The notes under the pieces are model-generated. The model did not search any database and was not told where the DNA came from. It saw only the letters and a list, made by a program, of their open reading frames with translations. A DNA stretch of 61,393 nucleotides, filler included, from Candidatus Woesearchaeota archaeon CG1_02_57_44 (GTDB taxonomy: Archaea; Nanobdellota; Nanobdellia; Woesearchaeales; CG1-02-57-44), in assembly GCA_001871415.1 (NCBI GenBank). It is 4 parts of 4 records of this genome, joined end to end, with 100 filler letters (N's around TTAATTAATTAA, not from the genome) between each part and the next. Parts side by side here need not be neighbours in the genome. Positions count along the whole stretch, not along the records: positions 18,614 to 40,109 come from MNWW01000057.1; 3 more parts are not named here. One strand, written 5' to 3'. Of the stretch, positions 27,332 to 40,023 are shown piece by piece. The stretch's first letter is position 1; each line of letters opens with the position of its first letter. The translations under genes were made by a program, and so were the position numbers.

Positions 27332-28633
27332 TCACATATCCCTTAGATATCCCCAATTATGCAACAGGTCCGAATCCTCCTGCCACCGATCACCGATATC
27401 CGTGCGATAGTACATGTTCGGGATGAGCACGTTCTGCACGCGTGTATACGCCTGCTTCTTTGCCTGGCGCATGGTGATGCCTGTGCCGCATACGACCAGC
27501 ACGACGCCACTGGTGCCGGTGACGACCCAGTTGCCGTCGCCATTGGTGCGCTTGACATCCACGATGTGCACGCCATCGGTGGGCTTCTTGAAGATGACAG
27601 CAGCATCCTTGCTGTAGGTATCAAAGGTCTCCTGATCCTTGAATGGATACGGTGAGGTGACGATGCGCACGCCCACCTGATAACCCGTCTTCACCTTCAA
27701 CTCCGGCTTCTCCCCGCGAGCAAGCGCAGCAAAAAACTGTCCCATGGGAACGCGCATGCCTTCCTGCTGGATGCTGATAGTGGGATAGCCAAAGCGCGAC
27801 GTCCACTCCAGAGGATAGATGCCGTTCGCATTGACGATAGTATTGATATCGATGTATCCAGCGTATCCTTCGGCGACCAGCTTAGCCTCCATCTTCTTGA
27901 GCGTGTTGTTGAATATCTTGTTGGGCGCGCTCCAGAACATGCTGGTACCCATCTCGCCTGTGGCAGGTCCAAGATTGCCGGGAAACAGTTTCTTGTGCTC
28001 AAAGTTGACATTGATTGGCGTGATGAACTCCTTGCCATTGAAGAACGCGCCGACCGCGACTTCAACGCCAGTCACCCGCTTCTGGAGTTGGAACACTTTG
28101 ATGTGATAAGCCCATGTCTTCTTGTAGGCCTCAAGCACGCGGACAACATCAGCGCCGTCGTCCTCCTGCCCGATGAACAGCAGGCGCTTGATGTTCTGTG
28201 CTTCTCCACTTGGCTTGATGACATATTTGTTGGGATTCTGCTTGACAAACGCGATAGCGTCATCAAAGCTCGTGAATTCCTGGTAGGGAAGGATATTGAT
28301 GCCTGCCTTCTTCATTTCTTCCTGGCCAAAGGTACGGTCGTCTTCAAGCATGTCGGTATAGGCAGAGCCGCCGATGACCGCCTTGCCCTTGGCGCGTAGC
28401 TCCTGGGCGAGTGTGCCCTGGCCAAGGACATCATCAAAGAGTATGACATCAGCCCAGTCGATATGCTCTTCCCAGTCCTCCACCTTCTCGACAAAGCCGT
28501 CGCCAATCTCCCTTTCAGCAGGTACTTTGACATAGTACTTGACATCATGCCCTTCCTTGGCAATGGTCCAGGCGAGATCAACACTCAATCCTTCCAGAGA
28601 AACAAAGAGGAATTTTTCCACGTTAGGTCGCAT
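27332..28633 (-). CDS. PurD-like ATP-grasp ligase (phosphoribosylamine-glycine ligase family, divergent type)
   Basis: LEDDRTFG, YVIKPSG, EHKKLFPGNLGPATGEMG, LEWTSRFGYP and YYRTDIG motifs. Confidence 0.8.
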   Translation of the reverse strand: MRPNVEKFLFVSLEGLSVDLAWTIAKEGHDVKYYVKVPAEREIGDGFVEKVEDWEEHIDWADVILFDDVLGQGTLAQELRAKGKAVIGGSAYTDMLEDDRTFGQEEMKKAGINILPYQEFTSFDDAIAFVKQNPNKYVIKPSGEAQNIKRLLFIGQEDDGADVVRVLEAYKKTWAYHIKVFQLQKRVTGVEVAVGAFFNGKEFITPINVNFEHKKLFPGNLGPATGEMGTSMFWSAPNKIFNNTLKKMEAKLVAEGYAGYIDINTIVNANGIYPLEWTSRFGYPTISIQQEGMRVPMGQFFAALARGEKPELKVKTGYQVGVRIVTSPYPFKDQETFDTYSKDAAVIFKKPTDGVHIVDVKRTNGDGNWVVTGTSGVVLVVCGTGITMRQAKKQAYTRVQNVLIPNMYYRTDIGDRWQEDSDLLHNWGYLRDM

Positions 28634-28656
28634 TTCAAAAGAGATTGCGGTGCTTC

Positions 28657-29148
28657 TTAAGCTTTTTGATGCTGCAGCCTCAGAAAGAACTCTTTCGTCG
28701 CCAAAAGCGACGCCACGGCAGAAGGCACCAGCGTGCGCCACTTCCCGTCAGGAGAACGCATCTCCCGGATGATGGTGCCGGATATATGGGGCAGCAGCTC
28801 CAGCCGAACAACGGTAATACCCGCGCCTTGTAATAATCCGGCAACATAGTCATTTCCCGTGTAGGCCGAATCAAAATCCAGCCCCTGCACTTGCGAAAGC
28901 CACGTATCATTATCAGGCATATCCTCAAGCAGGACGATGTCATAGGCAATGACCCCCGATTCCAGCAACGCTGCCCTGATAAGCAGCTCTCGCTGAGCTG
29001 CGCTCCAGGGATTTTCCTTCGTGCCCGCTATCTGTGCGCTGCCGATAGCGATGAGTGCCCGGTCACATTCCTGCAGGATGCGCCGGACATCCTCCAGATG
29101 ACCAAGATGAAACGGCTGAAACCGCCCAATGAACAATCCGGTGCGCAT
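28657..29148 (-). CDS. nadM: Nicotinamide-nucleotide adenylyltransferase
   Basis: FIGRFQPFHLGH, IGSAQ, ENPW, ISGTIIR and WRTLVP motifs. Confidence 0.88.
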   Translation of the reverse strand: MRTGLFIGRFQPFHLGHLEDVRRILQECDRALIAIGSAQIAGTKENPWSAAQRELLIRAALLESGVIAYDIVLLEDMPDNDTWLSQVQGLDFDSAYTGNDYVAGLLQGAGITVVRLELLPHISGTIIREMRSPDGKWRTLVPSAVASLLATKEFFLRLQHQKA

Positions 29149-29598: not shown

Positions 29599-29703
29599 CA
29601 GAAGAACACCTCAGCAGCGATGTCCGAAATTTGACACAACCGTCATTTTTTGTCATGATGCCGCCGACACCCTTATAAATCCCCCGGAAGGCACTACTGC
29701 ATC

Positions 29704-30915
29704 ATGAAAGCCATCATCGCGTATTCAGGAGGCCTGGACACCAGCTACTGCGTCTTGTGGTTACTGGACCAGGGATATGAAGTCTACACGCTCACTGTGG
29801 ATACCGGAGGATTCACGCAGGAGGAGCTCACACAGATAGCGACCAAAGCAAAAGAGCTTGGCGCCTCAGAGCATCGCACCGTTGACGGCAAGCCGGAAAC
29901 ATATAAAGAGTTCGCGGCCTATGTCATCAAGGGCAATATCCTGCGAGGGGGAGTTTATCCCTTGTGCGTCGGCGCAGAGCGCATGGTACAGGCGCGTCAC
30001 GCAGCGCTGTACGCAAAAGAGATAGGCGCGCAGGCAGTCTGCCATGGTTCGACAGGAGCAGGCAATGACCAGGTGCGCTTTGACGTCGCGCTCATGGCGC
30101 TCGCGCCTGAGGTGAAGATAATCGCCCCCATCCGCGAGCTGGAGATAAGCCGCGACGCTGAGCTGGCCTATCTGAAAGAGAAGGGTTTTGATTTCCCAGC
30201 GAAGAAAAAGACTTACAGCATTAATCAGGGCATTCTGGGAACGACCATCGGCGGCGGCGAGACCCATGACCCCTGGCAGAGCGTACCCGACAGCGCGTAT
30301 CCGGCGACCGTGCCTGCGGCAAAGGCTCCGGACCAGAAACTCACATTGACAATCACCTTTGAGCATGGCCTCCCTGTCGCGCTCGACGGCAAAGCACCAT
30401 CCACCGAGGGAGCGGCGCTGCCAGGCCAGCACATCCTTCAGGAGCTCAACACCCTGGGCGCAAAGCACGGCGTCGGCCGCGGCATCCACCTGGGAGATAC
30501 CATCCTGGGAATCAAAGGCCGTATCGCTTTTGAGGCACCGGGGGCGACCATCCTGATAAACGCGCACCGTGAGTTGGAAAAACTCGTCCAAAGCAAGCGC
30601 CAGCAGGCGATGAAGCAGACGATAGCTGACGAGTATGGCCGGCTTCTGCACGAAGGCCTGTGGCTCGATCCGGTGATGCGCGACCTGGAGGCGGCGATGG
30701 ACAAGAGCCAAGAGCGCGTGTCCGGCGAGGTTCGCGTCTCCTTGTTCAAAGGGGCTATCACTGTCGAAGGCGTCAAGAGCCCGCATTCGCTCATGGACGC
30801 GAAAGCGACCTACGGCGAGGGCAGCAAGCTCTGGAACGGCAAAGATGCCGAGGGGTTCTGCAAGATATACGGCATACAAAGCAAACTGGCGATGCACCAT
30901 GCGAATAACACCTGA
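29704..30915 (+). CDS. argG: Argininosuccinate synthase
   Basis: AYSGGLDTS, HGSTGAGNDQVRF and GIKGRIAFEAP motifs; TTATAAAT box upstream. Confidence 0.95.
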   Translation: MKAIIAYSGGLDTSYCVLWLLDQGYEVYTLTVDTGGFTQEELTQIATKAKELGASEHRTVDGKPETYKEFAAYVIKGNILRGGVYPLCVGAERMVQARHAALYAKEIGAQAVCHGSTGAGNDQVRFDVALMALAPEVKIIAPIRELEISRDAELAYLKEKGFDFPAKKKTYSINQGILGTTIGGGETHDPWQSVPDSAYPATVPAAKAPDQKLTLTITFEHGLPVALDGKAPSTEGAALPGQHILQELNTLGAKHGVGRGIHLGDTILGIKGRIAFEAPGATILINAHRELEKLVQSKRQQAMKQTIADEYGRLLHEGLWLDPVMRDLEAAMDKSQERVSGEVRVSLFKGAITVEGVKSPHSLMDAKATYGEGSKLWNGKDAEGFCKIYGIQSKLAMHHANNT

Positions 30916-31978
30916 TAAGATTGCCTCGAGCACGCGTAACGCGAATCTGTCGAGCGAGTTGGAGCTCTCGGACAAGATCATCTGCAAGCAAGGCTATGTC
31001 ATAGCCGGCAAGATCCTGAATGATAAGAGCACCTACAACACGTTGGAGCTGCCCAGCGGACGTCAGAGCCGTGTGTGCAAGAATGACATCGTGGTAGGCG
31101 TGCTCGGCGCGCGAAACGCGCTGCGCGGCTATTCTGGGGTGGTGCCCGACACCCTCAAAGCAGGCGATGTCATCCAGGTGCTCAATCTGGGTGGCGTCAT
31201 GGGAAAGTTCACTTCCGGCAACCCAGCAATAGGATCGCCGTTCAACATCGAGGTGCTCGGCAGCGTGCTCTCCTTTCCGGATTTCACCGAGCGCATAGGC
31301 CATCCAGCGCACGTGCTCGATGGCACCGTGAAGCCACAGGACAGCCTGGGCAAGACACCACCGCTGGTCATCGTCACCGGAACCAGCATGCAAGCCGGAA
31401 AGACGACCGCCGCGTGTGAGATCGTCAAGCAGCTGACGCATCAGGGTCTCAAGATAAATGCCGCGAAGCTGACCGGCATCAGTCTGATGCGTGACATGCT
31501 CGAGATGAAGGACGTCGGAGCCAAACGGGTCGTGGACTTCACCGACGCAGGCATTGTATGCACCAACCCGGACAATGTAGTGCATGTCGCAAAAGGAATC
31601 GTCACCACGCTGGCCAAGGACGAGCCCGATTGCATTGTCCTGGAGTTCGGCGATGGCATCATGGGCCAGTATGGCGTCATGCAGCTGCTGCTGGACAAAG
31701 AGCTTATGTCCAATGTCAAAGCCCACATCCTGGCAGCTAACGACCAGGTGGGCGCGTGGGGCGCGGTGAAGTATCTGGAAGGAAAGTGCCCGGCAATTGA
31801 CGCCATAACAGGTCCTGCGACCGACAACACCGTAGGCACATCATTTGTGACAACCCTCGGCGTGCAGGCCGCCAACGCGATGATGCAAGGCGAGCTGCTT
31901 GGTAAGATTGCTGCAAGAAAACTCGGACTCACAATAAAGGTCATCCCGAGCACCACAAACAAAGGTGTAGCCCAATGA
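30899..31978 (+). CDS. Uncharacterised P-loop protein (DUF1611-like) inside the arg operon
   Basis: GTSMQAGKTT, AAKLTG, DFTDAG and VLEFGDG motifs; overlaps both argG and argC. Confidence 0.75.
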   Translation: MRITPDKIASSTRNANLSSELELSDKIICKQGYVIAGKILNDKSTYNTLELPSGRQSRVCKNDIVVGVLGARNALRGYSGVVPDTLKAGDVIQVLNLGGVMGKFTSGNPAIGSPFNIEVLGSVLSFPDFTERIGHPAHVLDGTVKPQDSLGKTPPLVIVTGTSMQAGKTTAACEIVKQLTHQGLKINAAKLTGISLMRDMLEMKDVGAKRVVDFTDAGIVCTNPDNVVHVAKGIVTTLAKDEPDCIVLEFGDGIMGQYGVMQLLLDKELMSNVKAHILAANDQVGAWGAVKYLEGKCPAIDAITGPATDNTVGTSFVTTLGVQAANAMMQGELLGKIAARKLGLTIKVIPSTTNKGVAQ

Positions 31979-33030
31979 GCCAGAGCAATCCAGTGAAGAT
32001 CGGCATCATCGGCGGCTCTGGCTATGTGGGAAAGGAACTCCTACGCATCTTGCTGCAGCATCCTGGTGTCGAGATAGCGGCAGTGAGCAGCCGAAGCAGC
32101 GCAGGAAAATCAATTGCCGACGTCCATCGCTCACTGGCAGGGCTCACTACCCTCACCTTCACGGGCGACATCAAGGCCATGGCGAACCTGGACCTCGTCT
32201 TTGTCGCAGTCAGCCATGGAGATTCCATGGCCATGGTCAAGGAGCTCCACGATACGAATCCAAAGCTCAAGATAATCGACTTGGGCGCTGACTTTCGCCT
32301 CACGCCAGAACGGTTCGAACAGACATACAAGCAGCAACACTGCTGCCCTGATATCAAAGCAGTGCCTGGCCTGCCCGAGCTCAATGCGGAAGCGATAAAG
32401 CATGCGACCATCGTCGCGAACCCCGGCTGCTTCGCCAACACCGCCATCCTGGGATTGGCGCCCATAGCCGCGCACATCCTGCCCACGGTGCAGGTCACAG
32501 CCATAACGGGCAGTTCCGGATCCGGCGCTCAGCCAAAGCAGGCAACGCATCATCCAGAGCGCGACGGCAATGTGGCAGCGTACATGATTCTGTCGCATCG
32601 CCATGTCCCTGAGATAGAGCAGGCGCTCAACGACGTAGTGCAATCTGTGCCACAGTCCCCTGACAGCCAACCGCAGCCCTTCGCCATCCAATTGGTCCCC
32701 CAGTCAGGACCCTATGCCCGCGGCATCCTCGCCACTTGCTTTGCCACGCTCAAGGACCCCTCAGTGGACGCCAAGAAGCTATACCAGGAGTGGGCTGATC
32801 CGACAACGCGCCCGTTCGTGCGCATCCGCGACGATTCGCCAAAGCTCAGCGATGTGCGCGGCTCCAACTTCATAGACATCGCCGTGCACCAGCAAGGCAA
32901 CACCGTGGTGATACTGTCAGCACTTGACAACATGGTCAAGGGAGCCGCAGGCAACGCCGTGCAGTGCATGAACCTGATGCTGAAGCTGCCAGAGACGACC
33001 GGTCTGCTGCAGGCGCCGCTTTCGCCCTGA
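31975..33030 (+). CDS. argC: N-acylglutamyl-phosphate reductase
   Basis: GGSGYVG, IDLGADFRL, VANPGCF, GSSGSG and DNMVKGAAGNAVQ motifs. Confidence 0.94.
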   Translation: MSQSNPVKIGIIGGSGYVGKELLRILLQHPGVEIAAVSSRSSAGKSIADVHRSLAGLTTLTFTGDIKAMANLDLVFVAVSHGDSMAMVKELHDTNPKLKIIDLGADFRLTPERFEQTYKQQHCCPDIKAVPGLPELNAEAIKHATIVANPGCFANTAILGLAPIAAHILPTVQVTAITGSSGSGAQPKQATHHPERDGNVAAYMILSHRHVPEIEQALNDVVQSVPQSPDSQPQPFAIQLVPQSGPYARGILATCFATLKDPSVDAKKLYQEWADPTTRPFVRIRDDSPKLSDVRGSNFIDIAVHQQGNTVVILSALDNMVKGAAGNAVQCMNLMLKLPETTGLLQAPLSP

Positions 33031-33135
33031 TATCACGATAGACATCAGACCGCATCAAGCAGGAACATGAGACGCTGTCCAACGCACGAATCAGAACCCA
33101 TCGTAAGACATCCAGAACCCCATGAGCTGATACCC

Positions 33136-34380
33136 ATGCCAGGAACAAACGAGCAGAAACCATCATCCGCCACACAGGACATCATGTCCATGGAGGACGA
33201 GCACCAGCTGTACACCTACAGCAAGTACCCTATCGCTATAGAGAAAGGCGAAGGAGCATTCGTCTATGACATAGACAGCAACCGCTACCTTGATTTCTAC
33301 GGCGGCCACGCAGTCGCATTAACGGGCCATTGCCATCCCAAGGTCGTGCATGCCATCCAGAACCAGGCAGCGACACTCATCTTCTATAGCAACGCGGTCT
33401 ACAACAGCACGCGGGCCAAAGCCGCTGAAGCGCTCGTGAAGCTCACACCAGAAGGTATCACCAAGGTATTCTTCTGCAACTCCGGCGCTGAGGCGAATGA
33501 GACAGCTATCAAGGCCGCGCGCCTGCATACCGGACGCACACAGATAATCGCCATGAAAGAGGGATTCCATGGACGAACCTACGGATCTATGAGCGCGACC
33601 GGCATTGACAAATATCGCATCTTCCCGCCATTGGTGCCCGGTATAGATTTCGCGGAGTTCGGCAGCCTGGAATCCATCAAAGCGCTCGCGTCACAAGAGA
33701 CCGCGGCGATCATCCTTGAGCCTATCCAGAGCATGGCAGGCGTCCGTGTCGCGGCGAAGGAGTATTTTATCGCATTGCGAAATCTCTGCGACGAGCTGGG
33801 CATCCTGCTCATCTTCGATGAAGTGCAGACCGGCATGGGCCGCACTGGCGCGCCCTTCTACAGCACGCTCATCGGCGTGACGCCTGATATCATCACAAGC
33901 GCGAAAGGCATCGCGTCGGGAGTCCCCATGGGCGCATGCTTCCTGCAGGAGAAGATAGCAGCAGGCATCAAGCCAGGCCAGCAGGGCTCGACCTTCGGCG
34001 GCGGACCGCTCGCGTGCGCAGCTGCGCTTGCCACTGCAGAGCTGTTGCAAGAGCAGCGTCTGCCAGAGAACGCCGCGGCGATGGGAGACTACTTGATGCG
34101 AAAGCTCGTCAGCATGCCACACGTCAAGGACGTGCGCGGGCAGGGGCTGCTCATCGGCATAGAGTTCGGCCAGGACGCGAAACCATTGGTCAAGCAGCTG
34201 CTCAAGCACCAGGTGCTGGTGAGCGGCTCCGAGGATCCCAAGACCATCCGCCTACTGCCTCCGCTGGTCATCAGCCAGGAGCACGCGGATATCTTCCTCG
34301 CGGCGCTCAAGAGCGCGACAGACGAAGTCTTTGGAGCGAAGGATACAGTAAAGCAATCCACTGCAGGTGATGCGCAATGA
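33136..34380 (+). CDS. argD: Acetyl/succinylornithine aminotransferase
   Basis: NSGAEANE, FHGRT, DEVQTGMGRTG, SAKGIASG and STFGG motifs; start uncertain. Confidence 0.92.
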   Translation: MPGTNEQKPSSATQDIMSMEDEHQLYTYSKYPIAIEKGEGAFVYDIDSNRYLDFYGGHAVALTGHCHPKVVHAIQNQAATLIFYSNAVYNSTRAKAAEALVKLTPEGITKVFFCNSGAEANETAIKAARLHTGRTQIIAMKEGFHGRTYGSMSATGIDKYRIFPPLVPGIDFAEFGSLESIKALASQETAAIILEPIQSMAGVRVAAKEYFIALRNLCDELGILLIFDEVQTGMGRTGAPFYSTLIGVTPDIITSAKGIASGVPMGACFLQEKIAAGIKPGQQGSTFGGGPLACAAALATAELLQEQRLPENAAAMGDYLMRKLVSMPHVKDVRGQGLLIGIEFGQDAKPLVKQLLKHQVLVSGSEDPKTIRLLPPLVISQEHADIFLAALKSATDEVFGAKDTVKQSTAGDAQ

Positions 34381-35381
34381 ATTTCATCAGCACTGCCGAC
34401 GTGACCGGTAAGGAACTGGCAAGCATCCTGTCAGCAGCCACGCTGGGCAAGAAGCAGGGATGGAAACCCAAGCTCAAGGGCAAGACCGTCGGCCTCCTGT
34501 TCTTCAACCCCTCATTGCGGACACGCACATCGTTTCAGGCAGGGCTCATAAAACTGGGCTCAGTTCCGATTGCCCTGAGCGCGACGGATTCCTGGGCATT
34601 AGAGCTCATCGACGGCTCCATCATGGACGGCAGCACAGCTGAGCATGTCAAGGATGCGGCGCGGGTGCTCTCGACCTACCTGGATGCCATCTGTATCCGC
34701 TCGTTTCCTGGCATGAAGGACTGGGACGACGACAAGAAGGACGCGCTCATCCAGGGATTCGCCAAGCATGCCACGGTCCCGGTCATCAACATGGAGTCCT
34801 GCCTATGGCACCCATGCCAGGCGCTAGCGGACGCGCTCACCATGCAAGAGGTGCTGGGAAAGACTAAGGGTAAGACCTTTGTGCTGAGCTGGGCGAATCA
34901 TCCGCGACAATTGCCCATGGCAGTCCCCAATTCAGCGCTACTTATCGCAGCACAGATGGGCATGAACGTGCGACTCGCCTGCCCCAAGGGCTATGAGCTG
35001 GATAGTGATATCCTCAACCAGGTGAAGCAGACCGCGGTGAAGCAGGGAGGTTCATTCAGCACCCATAATGATCAGGCAGAAGCATTCAAGGGCGCGCAGA
35101 TAATCTACGCCAAGTCCTGGACCCCTCCGGTGCTGGTGGGCAAACCCGACGAAGACACTAAGCTCCGCAAGAAATTGTCCTGGACCATCACCAAGGAGAA
35201 GATGGCAATGACCAATAACGCTGCCTTCATGCACTGCCTGCCCGTGCGGCGAAATGTAGTGGTGACCGACGAGGTCCTGGACAGCAAGCAATCGGTCATC
35301 ATCCAGCAGGCCGAGAACCGCATGCACTCTCAGAATGCGCTGCTCCTCAAACTGCTGGGAGGCAAGAGCAAAAGCAAGTGA
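34377..35381 (+). CDS. argF': N-acyl-ornithine carbamoyltransferase (AOTCase/SOTCase type)
   Basis: FNPSLRTR, W.LE..DG.IMDG...EH insertion, HPCQ, HPRQLPMAVPNS, YAKSW and HCLPVRRN motifs. Confidence 0.92.
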   Translation: MNFISTADVTGKELASILSAATLGKKQGWKPKLKGKTVGLLFFNPSLRTRTSFQAGLIKLGSVPIALSATDSWALELIDGSIMDGSTAEHVKDAARVLSTYLDAICIRSFPGMKDWDDDKKDALIQGFAKHATVPVINMESCLWHPCQALADALTMQEVLGKTKGKTFVLSWANHPRQLPMAVPNSALLIAAQMGMNVRLACPKGYELDSDILNQVKQTAVKQGGSFSTHNDQAEAFKGAQIIYAKSWTPPVLVGKPDEDTKLRKKLSWTITKEKMAMTNNAAFMHCLPVRRNVVVTDEVLDSKQSVIIQQAENRMHSQNALLLKLLGGKSKSK

Positions 35382-35391
35382 GGTAACAACC

Positions 35392-36300
35392 ATGAACCGC
35401 GTCAATAATCTCAAGGAGATCTTACCGTATGTGCGCACCTTCCAGGGCGCCACCTTCGTCATCAAGATAGGCGGCGAAGTGTGCGGCGAGAAGTATCTGG
35501 ACGAGATTGCCCAGCAGCTCTCGCTCCTGCATCACATCGGCATCGCTGTCGTCGTCGTGCATGGAGGCGGTCCGCAGATGGACGCCTGGAGCAAGCGTAT
35601 GGGCATCGAGCGCAAGGTCGTCGCGGGACGGCGCATAACTGACCTGGAGACCCTGCAGGCTACCAAGATGATCTTCGCTGGGCTCATCAGCACTGATCTG
35701 GTGACCGCGTTGCGAAAGCAGGGAGCGCCCGCAGTGGGTCTGACAGGAGCCGACGGCTATCTGCTGACCGCCGAGAGGCGCGCACCCATCGACGTGCAGG
35801 AGAATGGAAAGAAAGTCAAGGTCGATTTCCAGCATGTCGGTGATATCACGAAGGTCAATACAACATTGCTGCTGGGGCTTATCGAACAGGGATTGATCCC
35901 CGTCGTGGCCTCGCTCGGCGCTGACGATGAAGGCAATACCTACAATATCAACGCCGACACCGTTGCCAGCAAGCTGGCCATAGCGCTGCAGGCGGAGAAA
36001 TACATCATCCTCACCGACGTTGCCGGGATATTGCGCAACAAGGATGACGCGAAGACATTGGTATCGTACGCGGATATCGATGCCTTGCAGACGATGCTCG
36101 ACAAGGGCTCCATAACGGATGGTATGCGTCCGAAGGTGACGACGTGCATGGACGCGGTGAAGAACGGCGTGCACCGCACGCACATCATCGACGGCACGCG
36201 CGAAGGGACGCTGCTCCAGGAGCTCTTTGTCAACGAGGGCTGCGGCACGATGATTGTGGACAAGAAAGAGAAGAAAGCATACGAGAAAGAGCTCAAGTGA
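35392..36300 (+). CDS. argB: N-acylglutamate kinase
   Basis: VIKIGG, VHGGGPQ, GRRITD, YNINADT and GMRPKV motifs. Confidence 0.93.
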   Translation: MNRVNNLKEILPYVRTFQGATFVIKIGGEVCGEKYLDEIAQQLSLLHHIGIAVVVVHGGGPQMDAWSKRMGIERKVVAGRRITDLETLQATKMIFAGLISTDLVTALRKQGAPAVGLTGADGYLLTAERRAPIDVQENGKKVKVDFQHVGDITKVNTTLLLGLIEQGLIPVVASLGADDEGNTYNINADTVASKLAIALQAEKYIILTDVAGILRNKDDAKTLVSYADIDALQTMLDKGSITDGMRPKVTTCMDAVKNGVHRTHIIDGTREGTLLQELFVNEGCGTMIVDKKEKKAYEKELK

Positions 36301-36340
36301 ACAGGAAGAAGAGACATAACGAATGCGAAAGGCGCGACCA

Positions 36341-37408
36341 ATGAAACTACTCAAGCAGCTGGTGGGGATCAAATCCCTCAGTGGCCATGAAGGCCCGATG
36401 GCGGATGAGGTAGAGTCATTCCTGAAGTTGCGGGGATTTTCACCCAAGCGCTGGAAGAACAACGTCTGGGCCATCAAGCAGGGCGCCATAAGTAATGCGG
36501 TCAAGGTCAAAGGAACCGACAACACACACAAGGCAAACGCAATACAATCCAAGACCATACTGTTCTGCTCGCATCTTGATACGGTCGAGACAGGCGCACC
36601 TGCCAAAGCGATGGCCAATGGAAAAATGCTCAGCGGCCTTGGCGCCGTTGACGCGAAGGCGAGCGTCGCCGCCATGCTGGAAGCGTTCATCGTAGCAAAG
36701 CCGAAGCCAGGAACAAACATCCTCATCGCGCTCACCCAGGAAGAAGAGACAGGTGGGAAAGGCATGCCCGTCATGGCAGCCAAGCTACCCGCGCATGCCG
36801 CTGCCATCGTGGGAGAGCCCACCAAAATGCAGCCATGCATCGCGCAGAAAGGCCTGCTCATCGCCAAGCTTACCGTCGCAGGCAAGACAGCGCACGCTTC
36901 GCGCCCGCAGCAGGGCAAGAACGCCATCATGCTGCTGGCAGAAGACATTTTACGTCTGCAAAAGCTTGCGTCTGGCAAGCTACCAAGCCACCCGCTGCTC
37001 GGCAAAGTCACCATCACACCCACGATGATGACGGGCGGCAGCGCGCGCAATGTGGTGCCTGCGCACGCCGAGGCGATTCTTGATATCCGCACCATACCCG
37101 GAGCGCATCAGGAGATTCTGACGTTGCTGAATAAGACCGTCAAGAGCACTATCACACCGCTGAGCATCCGCTTGGTGCCAAAGGCGACAGCCAAGACAGC
37201 AAACATCGCGAAGCTTGCGGCGAAGGCATCAGGCAAGAGATTCATCAGCAGTACAGGCATGAGCGACTGGGCGTTCCTCTCTTGTCCTGCGGTGAAGATA
37301 GGTCCAGGCGATCCCACGCTCTCGCATACCAAGCAAGAGCGCATCAGCGAAACCGAATATAAGAAAGCAGTCAAAGTCTATACCGCCATCATGGAGGAAT
37401 ACACATGA
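36341..37408 (+). CDS. argE: M20-family deacylase (ArgE-like, probably acyl-citrulline deacylase)
   Basis: SHLDTV, GLGAVDAK, EEETGG, VGEPT, GKTAHAS and SHTKQE motifs. Confidence 0.85.
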   Translation: MKLLKQLVGIKSLSGHEGPMADEVESFLKLRGFSPKRWKNNVWAIKQGAISNAVKVKGTDNTHKANAIQSKTILFCSHLDTVETGAPAKAMANGKMLSGLGAVDAKASVAAMLEAFIVAKPKPGTNILIALTQEEETGGKGMPVMAAKLPAHAAAIVGEPTKMQPCIAQKGLLIAKLTVAGKTAHASRPQQGKNAIMLLAEDILRLQKLASGKLPSHPLLGKVTITPTMMTGGSARNVVPAHAEAILDIRTIPGAHQEILTLLNKTVKSTITPLSIRLVPKATAKTANIAKLAAKASGKRFISSTGMSDWAFLSCPAVKIGPGDPTLSHTKQERISETEYKKAVKVYTAIMEEYT

Positions 37409-38730
37409 AGCCTCTCTGGGACAAGGGAAAGAAGCTGGACGCCACGGTGCTGGATTTCACCGCCGGCCAGGACGCTATCCTCGATACGCAGCTCGCCTAT
37501 TACGACGCTATCGCCTCTTGCGCGCATGTCAAGGCGCTGGCGAAAGCCGGACTGCTCAGCAAGCCTGAAGCAAAGACGCTGGTCACCAAACTTGCGGCTA
37601 TCGCAGATAAGGCAGCCGACGGTAAATTCGCCATCGACGCAGAGGATTGCCATTCAGCCATCGAACAGGCCCTGGGCGATATGGGCAAAAAAGTGCACCT
37701 GGGACGCTCGCGCAATGATCAGGCAGCGACAGCCATGCGCCTCTACCTCAAGGACATGCTGCTCGACGCAGGGTCTAAGCAAGCATTGCTCGCAGATATG
37801 TTGCAGTCTATGGCCCTGAAACATAAGGACACTCCTATGCCAGGATACAGCCACACGCGAAAGGCCATGGTCTCCAGTGTCGGGCACTGGCTTGGATCGT
37901 ACGCTGAGCTCTTGTCGCTGACCGTGCCGCGGCTCGGCGTCATCGACCTCTCTCCTTTAGGATCGGCGAGTGGCTTTGGCACTTCTGCCACCGTAGACCG
38001 GACGTTCGAGGCGAAGCTCCTGGGATTTGCCGGCGTGCAGCAAAACGCGCTGGGCTGTCAGGCTGGACGCGTCATGGCCGAGGCGCACGCGTGCCAGCAG
38101 ATGCTCTCGATCATGACAGTGCTCAGCCAACTGGCTGCGGACATCATCTTCTTCTCTGCCGAGGGCATCGGCTATGTGAAGATCAGCCCGGATATCGCGA
38201 CCGGAAGCTCGCTCATGCCAAATAAGCAGAACCCTGATGTCTTTGAGCTGGTGCGCGCGAAAGCGTCATCTGTGCTCGGCCACTGCACTGCGGTACAGTC
38301 CCTTGGTATAGGTATGCTCTCCGGCTATAATCGTGACTATCAGCAGGCAAAAGCGCACGTGATGCAGGCCGCCGCAGAGACGCTGGCAAGCCTGGAGATA
38401 CTGTCCCACGCGATGCGACACATCAGCATCGACGACGATGCATGCCTGAAGGCCTGCACATCAGACATGGCAGCGACGGATGTCGCGATCCAGTTGGCGA
38501 TAAAAGGAGTGCCCTTCCGCGACGCGTATCGTAAGGCCGTGCCCAAGGAAGTAAAGCCCCTGACCAAAACAGATGCATTAAGATTAGTGGATGCCCGAAA
38601 ATCTATCGGCGCGACAGGCAATCCGACCACTATGGCAAAGAACATAAAAACAGCGCAGGATGCGCTACTCACATTCAGTAAGCAATTGGAGGGATGTAGT
38701 TCATGGGATGCGGAACAATCGAAGGCATAA
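37405..38730 (+). CDS. argH: Argininosuccinate lyase
   Basis: HLGRSRNDQ, MPGYSH, TGSSLMPNKQNPD and GVPFRDAY motifs. Confidence 0.94.
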   Translation: MKPLWDKGKKLDATVLDFTAGQDAILDTQLAYYDAIASCAHVKALAKAGLLSKPEAKTLVTKLAAIADKAADGKFAIDAEDCHSAIEQALGDMGKKVHLGRSRNDQAATAMRLYLKDMLLDAGSKQALLADMLQSMALKHKDTPMPGYSHTRKAMVSSVGHWLGSYAELLSLTVPRLGVIDLSPLGSASGFGTSATVDRTFEAKLLGFAGVQQNALGCQAGRVMAEAHACQQMLSIMTVLSQLAADIIFFSAEGIGYVKISPDIATGSSLMPNKQNPDVFELVRAKASSVLGHCTAVQSLGIGMLSGYNRDYQQAKAHVMQAAAETLASLEILSHAMRHISIDDDACLKACTSDMAATDVAIQLAIKGVPFRDAYRKAVPKEVKPLTKTDALRLVDARKSIGATGNPTTMAKNIKTAQDALLTFSKQLEGCSSWDAEQSKA

Positions 38731-39878
38731 GAGTCGCCTCAAAGAGTTGCGGCACGAAAGAGACCGGCAGGGACCTGGCCATCTGGGTCGCTGACGGGCC
38801 CTGCCAGGCCGCAGGCGTCTTCACCCAGACCAGCATGCCAAGCTATGCCGTGACCAGCAACCGAAGGAAGATAGCAGGTGATGTGCAGGCCATCCTCGTG
38901 TCCGCAGGTGTAGCCAATGTCTTCACCGGAGCTGAAGGTGAGCAAGACGCTGATGAGATAGTCGCTCATGCAGCGGATGAGCTCGGTATCCCTCAGGAAT
39001 CAGTATTGTTCTTCACCACCGGCTTCATCGGATCACGTCTGCCGGTCGACGCCATCAAGGCATCATTGTCCGGCATCGCCGACGAGCTCGCGGACGATGA
39101 TGAACAGGCGGCGAGGGCGATCATGACCACCGACACCGTGTCCAAGACTGTGCAGGTGAAAGTATCGACCAGCGTGGGTGATGTGACCATCGGCGCGACA
39201 GCCAAAGGAAGCGGCATGGTCAATCCGAACATGGCGACGCTGCTCTGCTTCGTCTCCACTGATGCCGCCATATCCCATGACGTGCTCCAGCCCATGCTGA
39301 AGCGCTGCGTCGATAGGTCCCTGAACATGGTGGCCATCGATAATGATACGGCATTCTCAGACAGCTGCGTGATGCTGGCGACCGGCGCGGTGAAAGTGCG
39401 CGAGCGCGACCATGAGGCAGTGGAATCAGGATTGCTCGACTGCCTGACGCAGGTAGCGCGACTGATAGCCATGGACGGCGAGGGCTCTACACGCATGTTC
39501 GAGGTGCAGGTGACCGGGGGCCTCACCGAGGAGGACGCGCGCAAAGTGGCAAAGTCCATAGCGTCATCCATGCTGGTCAAGACCGCGGTGTTCGGCGAGG
39601 ATCCGAATGTCGGCAGGGTATTATGCGCCGCGTCGTACGCTGGAGCGAAACTGGACGAAAAGCGCCTGGCGGTGTCGGTTGTGCATGACGACCTGCAGAT
39701 CCCCATGGTCAAAGACGGCGTGGTGCTCAGCTATGACCGGCGCAAGGCCGCTGCGGTCATGAAGAGCGATTGTCCGGTATTTGTCTTGGAGCTGGGCATG
39801 GGGGAGGGAGCAGCGACCGCCTTCGGCTGCGATCTCACGGACCAGTATGTCAGCATCAACGCTGATTTCCCGACGTGA
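38703..39878 (+). CDS. argJ: Ornithine acetyltransferase family protein (divergent)
   Basis: AIMTTDT, KGSGMVNPNMATLL (autocleavage Thr), DGEGSTR, KTAVFGEDPN and GCDLT..YV.INA motifs. Confidence 0.88.
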   Translation: MGCGTIEGIRVASKSCGTKETGRDLAIWVADGPCQAAGVFTQTSMPSYAVTSNRRKIAGDVQAILVSAGVANVFTGAEGEQDADEIVAHAADELGIPQESVLFFTTGFIGSRLPVDAIKASLSGIADELADDDEQAARAIMTTDTVSKTVQVKVSTSVGDVTIGATAKGSGMVNPNMATLLCFVSTDAAISHDVLQPMLKRCVDRSLNMVAIDNDTAFSDSCVMLATGAVKVRERDHEAVESGLLDCLTQVARLIAMDGEGSTRMFEVQVTGGLTEEDARKVAKSIASSMLVKTAVFGEDPNVGRVLCAASYAGAKLDEKRLAVSVVHDDLQIPMVKDGVVLSYDRRKAAAVMKSDCPVFVLELGMGEGAATAFGCDLTDQYVSINADFPT

Positions 39879-39882
39879 GGAA

Positions 39883-40023
39883 GAATAACAAAAATCCGCC
39901 ACTCGGCGCTAACCGCGGCCTGAAGGCCGCGGTATTACCGCGCCTCGTCATTGCATGCGGATTTTTGAATTGCAAAGCACGTCCTGAAGGACGGGGTATT
40001 CAACCCCGTGCTTTGCAATAACA
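39883..40023 (+). mobile_element. 141-bp non-coding palindromic element, copy 1 (IS200/IS605-end-like or REP-like)
   Basis: Matches the reverse complement of 56241-56381 at all but 2 positions; two stem-loop modules, each with a CC-TGAA-GG hairpin. Confidence 0.75.

Follow-up and report, generated by a model that had tools for sequence, protein, structure and literature searches.

Background

Arginine can be made without an ornithine transcarbamylase (OTCase). In the Xanthomonas and Bacteroides transcarbamylase routes a related enzyme, ArgF', carbamoylates acylated ornithine, and an ArgE-type enzyme deacylates the acylcitrulline. The first-step enzyme is of the fused ArgA/B type in Xanthomonas and is a GNAT protein in Bacteroides. 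A further type of arg operon contains relatives of ACG33_RS14135, a hypothetical protein of Steroidobacter denitrificans. In the part of bioRxiv 10.1101/2024.10.14.618325 that deals with this family, its members are almost always found in arg operons and never alongside ArgA, ACG33_RS14135 is remotely like 7XRJ, and, of 70 ArgF' proteins encoded nearby, 90% carry A, P, S or V at position 92. By a rule that the same part takes from Shi et al. 2007, any of these four residues confers succinylornithine specificity. An alternative N-succinylglutamate synthase is the function that it predicts for the family, with no experiment reported. Described here is an arginine operon of this kind, argG-X-argC-argD-argF'-argB-argE-argH-argJ, located in a 61,393 nucleotide stretch of DNA (the window) from Candidatus Woesearchaeota archaeon CG1_02_57_44, assembly GCA_001871415.1.

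DPANN archaea are thought to be host-dependent for amino acids. The Woesearchaeota are placed by NCBI in the Nanobdellati, which is the DPANN group. In the literature no relevant paper was found on Woesearchaeota arginine biosynthesis, nor any linking succinylornithine with DPANN. The window is made up of 4 contigs joined with runs of N, and the operon is on contig C41 (window 18614–40109). The assembly is 1.53 Mb in 77 contigs, with an estimated completeness of 82% and contamination of 0.1%; absences from the assembly reported below are from this 82%. The evidence presented here makes it likely that the locus is a bacterial-type arginine operon in a DPANN (Woesearchaeota-type) chromosome, encoding an N-acyl, and by prediction N-succinyl, route that does not pass through free ornithine.

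Results and Discussion

Gene content and the proposed route

Nine co-oriented open reading frames (ORFs) on the + strand fill positions 29704 to 39878 of the window (Table 1). Neighbouring ORFs overlap at six of the eight junctions, with spacings, in order, of -17, -4, +36, -4, -47, +22, -4 and -28 nt, so the mostly overlapping gene set reported in the initial annotation is as described there. Pfam and NCBIfam models name eight of the nine genes, the exception being X. This gene has a possible alternative start, an ATG at 30845 that is also open. The argE-like gene has the same position in bacterial and archaeal loci, with identities of 32–42%, and argG is 64% identical to the operon copy of another genome of the same archaeal order, G126.

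Several genes expected of other arginine pathways were sought in the window and in the assembly. Classical ArgA was found in neither, TIGR01890 matching only the kinase part of ArgB (positions 2–283 of 429). There is no TIGR01206 (LysW) match in the assembly, a search that was positive in 4 of 14 control genomes, and PF00185 yields only ArgF' and PyrB there. The earlier observation that argA, a LysW carrier and an ordinary OTCase are missing from the window thus extends to the assembly. A variant N-acyl-citrulline pathway, as was first proposed, is required because the operon lacks an OTCase. The genes carA-carB-pyrB-pyrD are on contig C18, outside of the window as had been noted, and carbamoyl phosphate is therefore available; arcC was not found in the assembly.

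The operon would be transcribed from an archaeal TATA promoter. Glutamate would be acylated by X, and the N-acylglutamate would be converted to N-acylornithine via ArgB, ArgC and ArgD. ArgF' would then carbamoylate the N-acylornithine, using carbamoyl phosphate made by the carAB product of the other contig. Removal of the acyl group of N-acylcitrulline would fall to the M20 ArgE-like enzyme, and ArgG and ArgH would complete the route to arginine. The ninth gene, argJ, has no step in this scheme.

Table 1. Features of the arginine operon and its borders, in window positions.
Feature	Position	Strand	Remarks
TATA-like box TTATAAAT	29673..29680	+	31 to 24 nt 5' of the argG ATG; archaeal promoter, leaderless-type spacing
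argG, argininosuccinate synthase	29704..30915	+	NF001770 370 bits, cut-off 334
X, two-domain P-loop protein, 359 aa	30899..31978	+	no Pfam/NCBIfam family; predicted non-GNAT N-acyl (N-succinyl) glutamate synthase
argC	31975..33030	+	TIGR01850 321 bits, cut-off 234
argD, N-acylornithine aminotransferase	33067..34380	+	NF002325 372.5 bits, cut-off 372; Aminotran_3 368 bits
argF', N-acylornithine carbamoyltransferase, predicted N-succinylornithine type	34377..35381	+	NF003384 (N-acetylornithine carbamoyltransferase) 429 bits, cut-off 288
argB, N-acylglutamate kinase	35335..36300	+	TIGR00761 232 bits, cut-off 151; kinase domain alone, without GNAT domain
argE-like M20 deacylase, putative N-acylcitrulline deacylase	36323..37408	+	Peptidase_M20 and M20_dimer; under every NCBIfam equivalog cut-off
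argH, argininosuccinate lyase	37405..38730	+	TIGR00838 271 bits, just under cut-off 279.5; Lyase_1 145 bits
argJ, divergent ornithine acetyltransferase family	38703..39878	+	PF01960 391 bits; NF003802 387 bits, cut-off 351
Structured high-copy repeat, ~140 nt	39882..40023		directly 3' of the argJ stop; contig breaks there

Distribution of the operon

A scan of genome contigs with the X sequence alone as the query found no relative. When an alignment of the X family was used, with one genome per species, relatives were found in at least 588 bacterial species-level genomes, of which the best 80 loci were inspected. All 80 are bacterial, from the Gemmatimonadales, Acidobacteriota, Planctomycetota, Pseudomonadota, Myxococcota and Bdellovibrionota, and in all 80 X is adjoined by arg genes. 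The exact order argG-X-argC-argD-argF'-argB-argE-argH is present in 37 of these loci, and most of the others have the same order cut by contig ends. A scan of metagenomes recovered the contig itself and relatives at 42–49% identity, while closer protein homologues of X are known at 60–65%. Of 79 metagenome loci, 26 share this order minus argE, which is the most frequent arrangement there.

The first eight genes are thus a standard bacterial operon rather than a new layout. The initial annotation was correct in calling the operon bacterial in type, and its description of the architecture as non-standard does not stand, since these eight genes are in the commonest order. It had also raised the case that this gene order belongs to a pathway already characterised. 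In the part of bioRxiv 10.1101/2024.10.14.618325 that covers such operons the arrangement is described and its function predicted rather than characterised by experiment, which answers to that case in part.

Two variants of the operon were seen. In Bdellovibrionota (loci L007–L010) argH and argG are divergent from X-argC-(argD)-argF'-argB, with no argE nearby. In the 26 metagenome loci that lack argE the deacylase step has no assigned gene; this step is likewise unassigned in Steroidobacter in the portion of bioRxiv 10.1101/2024.10.14.618325 that describes it.

The archaeal carriers are few. A strong X match is present in 7 of 401 genomes of the archaeal order, including this one, spread over six families. 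The six others have the same operon order and each has it at its own GC content (0.31–0.48). The X of one of these is identical to a protein labelled by NCBI as 'Candidatus Woesearchaeota archaeon'. The nearest 40 genomes are all of the same order, each from another family, and are 0.6–2.1 Mb in size. In a phylum-wide sample of 401 genomes there was no carrier outside of the order, and the 6 matches were this genome and five already found. The new finding is that several DPANN lineages have the complete acyl-citrulline arginine operon of bacterial type, joined in this genome by a unique, divergent argJ.

The host of the operon

The operon type is overwhelmingly bacterial, and the PurD-type gene that flanks it is also about 70% identical in Planctomycetes and Bdellovibrionales. 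Both facts would suit a contig that is a mis-binned or chimeric bacterial fragment. The repeat at the 3' end of the operon argues otherwise. It has 46 matches, at 94–100% identity, on 38 of the 77 contigs, including contig C66, which has an archaeal 16S-tRNAAla-23S operon, and the carAB contig C18. Among the 40 genomes of the same order, diverged copies (72–74%) were found in only one, G026. The repeat forms two long hairpins (fold -70.4 kcal/mol, z -7.6), and its read depth is 91–403, as against 1–43 for unique bins. Of the 46 matches, 38 lie no more than 300 nt from the end of a contig, and the repeat thereby accounts for much of the fragmentation of the assembly. Neither the repeat nor the operon leader has a match in Rfam.

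Composition and read coverage give the same picture. The tetranucleotide profile of the operon ranks at the 39th percentile among pieces of its own genome (Pearson 0.969), whereas homologous bacterial loci give 0.39–0.69, and the GC content and the GC content at third codon positions (GC3) of all nine genes are within the genome background. Read depth stays even from the flank through the operon to argJ in 4 groundwater/aquifer runs. The argH/argJ junction is bridged by independent contigs from runs X3 and X4, which are other than the possible source run, and a separately deposited contig of 8641 bp (99.95% identity) spans the junction of the purD/nadM flank with argG and extends to argE. Three runs show an 84-nt 'skip' joint within argD, with a short side of only 21 letters and no direct repeat; this is taken as coming from another strain or organism.

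The promoter is also of the host's type. TATA-like hexamers 5' of 588 crude gene calls in the genome peak at -35 to -26, with 111 matches compared to 4–16 in other 5-nt bins, and the argG TATA box at -31 falls within this peak. The sharing of the repeat, composition, depth, bridging contigs and promoter spacing, together with the 0.1% contamination of the assembly and the six further genomes that have the operon at their own GC content, make mis-binning very unlikely. The contig is archaeal, and the DPANN-type host named in the initial annotation is the correct one; the coverage and composition comparison that it called for fits the archaeal genome.

Gene trees and horizontal transfer

In the tree of X, the 7 archaeal sequences and 4 from Bdellovibrionota form one clade (SH-aLRT 95). 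Within this, the window sequence, that of G126 and those of the Bdellovibrionota form an inner group (SH-aLRT 99). The same grouping is repeated in the trees of ArgF', ArgB and ArgG, with supports of 99, 95 and 96, which suggests that these genes were transferred together. Constraining the archaeal X sequences to one clade is marginally rejected (approximately unbiased test, p 0.041). The trees are unrooted and are compatible with one or two transfers and with either direction. They indicate that the first eight genes arrived as one block by horizontal transfer, a block common to Bdellovibrionota and a few other lineages of the archaeal order, in agreement with the horizontal acquisition that was first suggested.

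Gene X

Homologues of X number more than 2000. Those that are named are all 'hypothetical', and none has a precomputed Pfam domain. The only Pfam match of X itself is below threshold, to the DUF1611 P-loop domain (PF07755; 20.4 bits, gathering cut-off 25), and DUF1611_N does not match. Weak DUF1611 matches are, however, seen in 27 of 30 members of the X family. Two motifs, the Walker A-like GTxMxxGKT and ExGDG, are invariant in all 30 sequences. An AlphaFold 2 model built from these 30 sequences (predicted local distance difference test score, pLDDT, 93.7) has an N-terminal all-beta domain and a C-terminal P-loop domain. The best fold matches of the latter are the DUF1611 proteins 2g0t (Z 17.4) and 2obn (Z 16.0). 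Together with DgcN (7xrj), these superpose on the P-loop domain of X over some 176–180 residues at Z 15.4–17.4. X differs from the DgcN/DUF1611 proteins in its sub-cut-off Pfam score and in its N-terminal domain, which is without a solved match. X also differs from both of the first-step enzymes of the Xanthomonas and Bacteroides routes. Two other searches with X gave no informative candidate: Foldseek against the PDB returned only generic P-loop matches of the SRP/HypB/BioD kind, and a profile search of PDB sequences returned only BioD, with an E value of 1.4. Literature searches on DUF1611 and DgcN turned up no relevant paper.

The window operon is like the ACG33_RS14135-type operons in having a P-loop protein with a 7XRJ-like fold among argB, C, D, F', E, G and H, in lacking ArgA, and in its neighbouring ArgF', which has one of A, P, S or V at position 92. 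It is unlike them in being archaeal and in its appended ninth gene. Judged by operon context, likeness to 7XRJ and the ArgF' residue pattern, X very likely belongs to the ACG33_RS14135 family. By analogy X is predicted to be an alternative N-succinylglutamate synthase. The initial annotation had left the first step unassigned, which no longer holds given the prediction for this family in the relevant part of bioRxiv 10.1101/2024.10.14.618325 and the presence of argJ in the same operon.

A paralogue of X, 28–30% identical over both domains (matches of about 100 bits), is present in 6 of 401 genomes of the same order, including G047, G148, G064 and the unpublished G335, on which the count of six partly depends. 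Two of these loci were annotated, L181 (1336–2445, - strand) and L182 (1324–2397, - strand). Both are outside arg operons. An M20 deacylase follows the paralogue in both, and an aldehyde dehydrogenase precedes it in one. The paralogue may be part of another acylate-transform-deacylate pathway.

ArgF' and the acyl group

The best PDB matches of ArgF' are position-92 mutants of the Xanthomonas N-acetylornithine transcarbamylase (AOTCase), the top one being the E92A mutant 3l02. The ArgF' sequence DGSTAEH aligns to DGDTAEH, which puts Ala88 at the E92 specificity position. ArgF' is therefore without the acetyl-specifying Glu, although it is well above the cut-off of the N-acetylornithine carbamoyltransferase model NF003384. 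In 64 ArgF' proteins adjoining X, position 92 is V in 45, A in 6, T in 4, P in 3, Q in 3, S in 2 and R in 1, and is never Glu; 56 of the 64 have A, P, S or V. The Ala of the window's ArgF' at this position predicts a route of the succinyl (Bacteroides) type, in which ArgF' uses N-succinylornithine rather than the acetyl form. By overall sequence ArgF' is nearer to the Xanthomonas clade, with 300 bits to the Xanthomonas AOTCase structures compared to 198 bits to the N-succinylornithine transcarbamylase (SOTCase) of Bacteroides fragilis, yet it has Ala in place of Glu92.

The divergent ArgJ

The argJ gene is an addition found in this genome only. No argJ is near X in the other 165 loci, made up of 80 from genomes, 79 from metagenomes and 6 from archaea. 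A search for ArgJ anywhere in the genome was negative in 22 bacterial and 5 archaeal carriers of X (27 in total) and positive in 10 of 14 controls. This mutual exclusion of X and ArgJ supports a role for X in place of the glutamate-acylating enzyme, and the present genome is the single exception to it.

The protein is very divergent. Its best non-self matches among 5.8 billion proteins are 41–44% identical, and its end branch in the ArgJ tree is 1.29, compared to a median of 0.14. It departs from 11 of 68 near-invariant (at least 95%) columns (N43T, A48Y, P49A, S105T, I173V, S217A, T218F, F240V, A273G, G311S and Y389F), where other sequences have a median of 0 departures and never more than 4. 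The Ser replaced in S217A is invariant in 119 of 119 homologues. The site of Y389F corresponds to a C-terminal Tyr lying in the tail that reaches the ornithine side chain, according to the section of PMC13725253 that describes it. In the portion of PMC11947121 on Arg7, function is lost on replacement by alanine of four conserved residues that surround the nucleophile, which are given there without residue numbers.

These features would fit a gene that is decaying or already inactive, or one carried along by chance, that plays no part in the pathway. This reading has evidence on its side and is still unlikely. The gene appears whole: its reading frame is uninterrupted over the full length and overlaps argH by 28 nt, its GC3 of 0.73 is host-like, and its product scores above the family cut-off. 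The autocleavage site NMA|TLL is kept, with the beta chain starting at Thr179, as are the TTDT, K, E and N positions that bind ornithine or glutamate (compared with section 2.2 of PMC13725253). The substitutions suggest that ArgJ may have a changed substrate or may be impaired. It may be an acyltransferase that returns the acyl group from N-acylornithine or N-acylcitrulline to glutamate, it may release ornithine, or it may be an impaired relic.

A specific form of the changed function can be put forward as speculation, and a good deal more doubtfully than the linear route. ArgJ would be an N-succinyl (acyl) transferase moving the group from N-acylcitrulline or N-acylornithine to glutamate, which would turn the linear route into a cycle with X as a primer only. 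If this were true it would be in keeping with a DPANN genome that yielded no succinyl-CoA synthetase, and the acyl-citrulline pathway would for the first time have a cyclic form.

Other members of the archaeal order have ArgJ in a different setting. Clusters for the cyclic ArgJ pathway, argJ-argB-argD-argC, with an ArgJ of the same family, are present in 3 of the 40 same-order genomes. X is missing from them, and in at least one of them an OTC-like gene adjoins argJ. The three ArgJ proteins are 54–62% identical to each other and 38–41% identical to that of the window.

An ornithine cyclodeaminase, sought as a possible use for ornithine released by ArgJ, was not found in the genome. A divergent decarboxylase dependent on pyridoxal phosphate is located beside a deoxyhypusine synthase on contig C22 (locus L191, 1177–2277 on the - strand and 3–665 on the + strand), scoring 107 bits to the LysA model against a cut-off of 298. 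There is a hint here of a polyamine-pathway enzyme that might use ornithine or arginine.

Alternative roles for X and ArgJ

A number of observations weigh against the succinyl route with X as its first enzyme. The function of the X family is a prediction made by others and carried over here by analogy, and the succinyl assignment of ArgF' applies a one-residue rule derived from mutants of a single enzyme. When folded by itself (pLDDT 89.7), the N-terminal domain of X has a best match of Z 3.1, with none of 48,161 chains reaching Z 5. A second candidate for acylating glutamate stands beside X, as ArgJ is above the cut-off for the bifunctional enzyme (387 vs 351 bits), and its presence breaks the exclusion between X and ArgJ in a way that the pathway model leaves unexplained. 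An OTCase or other genes could sit in the missing part of the genome. In addition, no beta subunit of succinyl-CoA synthetase (sucC) was found in this genome, nor above the cut-off in any of the 5 other archaeal carriers examined, and POR_N, of pyruvate/oxoglutarate ferredoxin oxidoreductase, has no match above the cut-off in this genome. The source of succinyl-CoA is thus unexplained, although the genomes are incomplete and these absences are weak evidence.

The missing source of succinyl-CoA keeps alive an acyl-recycling role for ArgJ. It also keeps alive a different chemistry for X, which might be an ATP-dependent ligase joining free succinate or another acid to glutamate via an acyl phosphate. 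The P-loop domain of X is no nearer to the acetyltransferase DgcN (Z 15.4) than it is to the ATP-using dethiobiotin synthetase BioD (15.8) and CTP synthase (15.5), these three being effectively tied with one another and with the DUF1611 proteins, and it also matches formyltetrahydrofolate synthetase (13.1). The invariant Walker A-like and ExGDG motifs are intact, and succinyl-CoA synthetase was not found in any of the six archaeal carriers including this one. The top fold matches and the weak Pfam matches are nevertheless to DUF1611. Among the fold relatives, moreover, the DgcN type alone is described as acylating glutamate, with acetyl-CoA, in the PDB title and in the relevant part of bioRxiv 10.1101/2024.10.14.618325. 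A ligase is therefore a minority reading, unlikely and still worth keeping in view.

The pathway could instead be acetyl-based. ArgJ would supply N-acetylglutamate, from acetyl-CoA and by recycling, the acetylated ornithine would pass through ArgF' and ArgE, and X would be regulatory or accessory. The score of ArgJ against the bifunctional model and its nucleophile, Thr179, would suit this, as would the failure to find a succinyl-CoA synthetase and the closeness of ArgF' to the Xanthomonas AOTCase. Against these, the residue of ArgF' at the acetyl-specifying position is Ala and not Glu, and ArgJ is altered in its near-invariant columns. The 5 archaeal and 22 bacterial carriers that have no ArgJ indicate that the operon works without it, and the acetyl-based pathway is rather improbable. 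The succinyl route, with X acylating glutamate, is preferred here. What the data establish are the identities and order of the genes, their host, their distribution and the trees, whereas the chemistry of X, the choice of succinyl over acetyl and the part played by ArgJ are inferred.

Flanking gene and other observations

On the - strand 5' of the operon is a PurD-like gene of an unusual type (window 27332–28741; TIGR00877 112 bits, cut-off 288). Its relatives at about 70% identity are in DPANN archaea, Planctomycetes, Bdellovibrionales and Parcubacteria, and 3 of the 40 same-order genomes have it at 67–69%. It looks like a widely exchanged gene.

The 23S rRNA match on contig C66 (locus L001, 2378–5972) covers 3595 nt, compared to a model of 2987 positions, indicating one or more insertions that total about 600 nt, perhaps an intron. 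ARAGORN calls two tRNA-like genes, each some 100 nt long, at 32007–32106 on contig C26 and 74841–74936 on contig C53, with the four-base 'anticodons' cccg and gggg. These may be mis-modelled intron-bearing archaeal tRNAs.

Implications

In one DPANN lineage and six of its same-order relatives there is a complete bacterial-type arginine operon, adjusted to the composition of each host, and the genome described here also has carAB. The operon and carAB together point to biosynthetic autonomy gained by gene transfer, through a route common to the predatory Bdellovibrionota. The operon depends upon the X family, which has hundreds of species-level members and a function that is predicted only. This is the only natural case found in which X and ArgJ are together. 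It is therefore a test bed for the role of X, and for that of ArgJ in a pathway without free ornithine.

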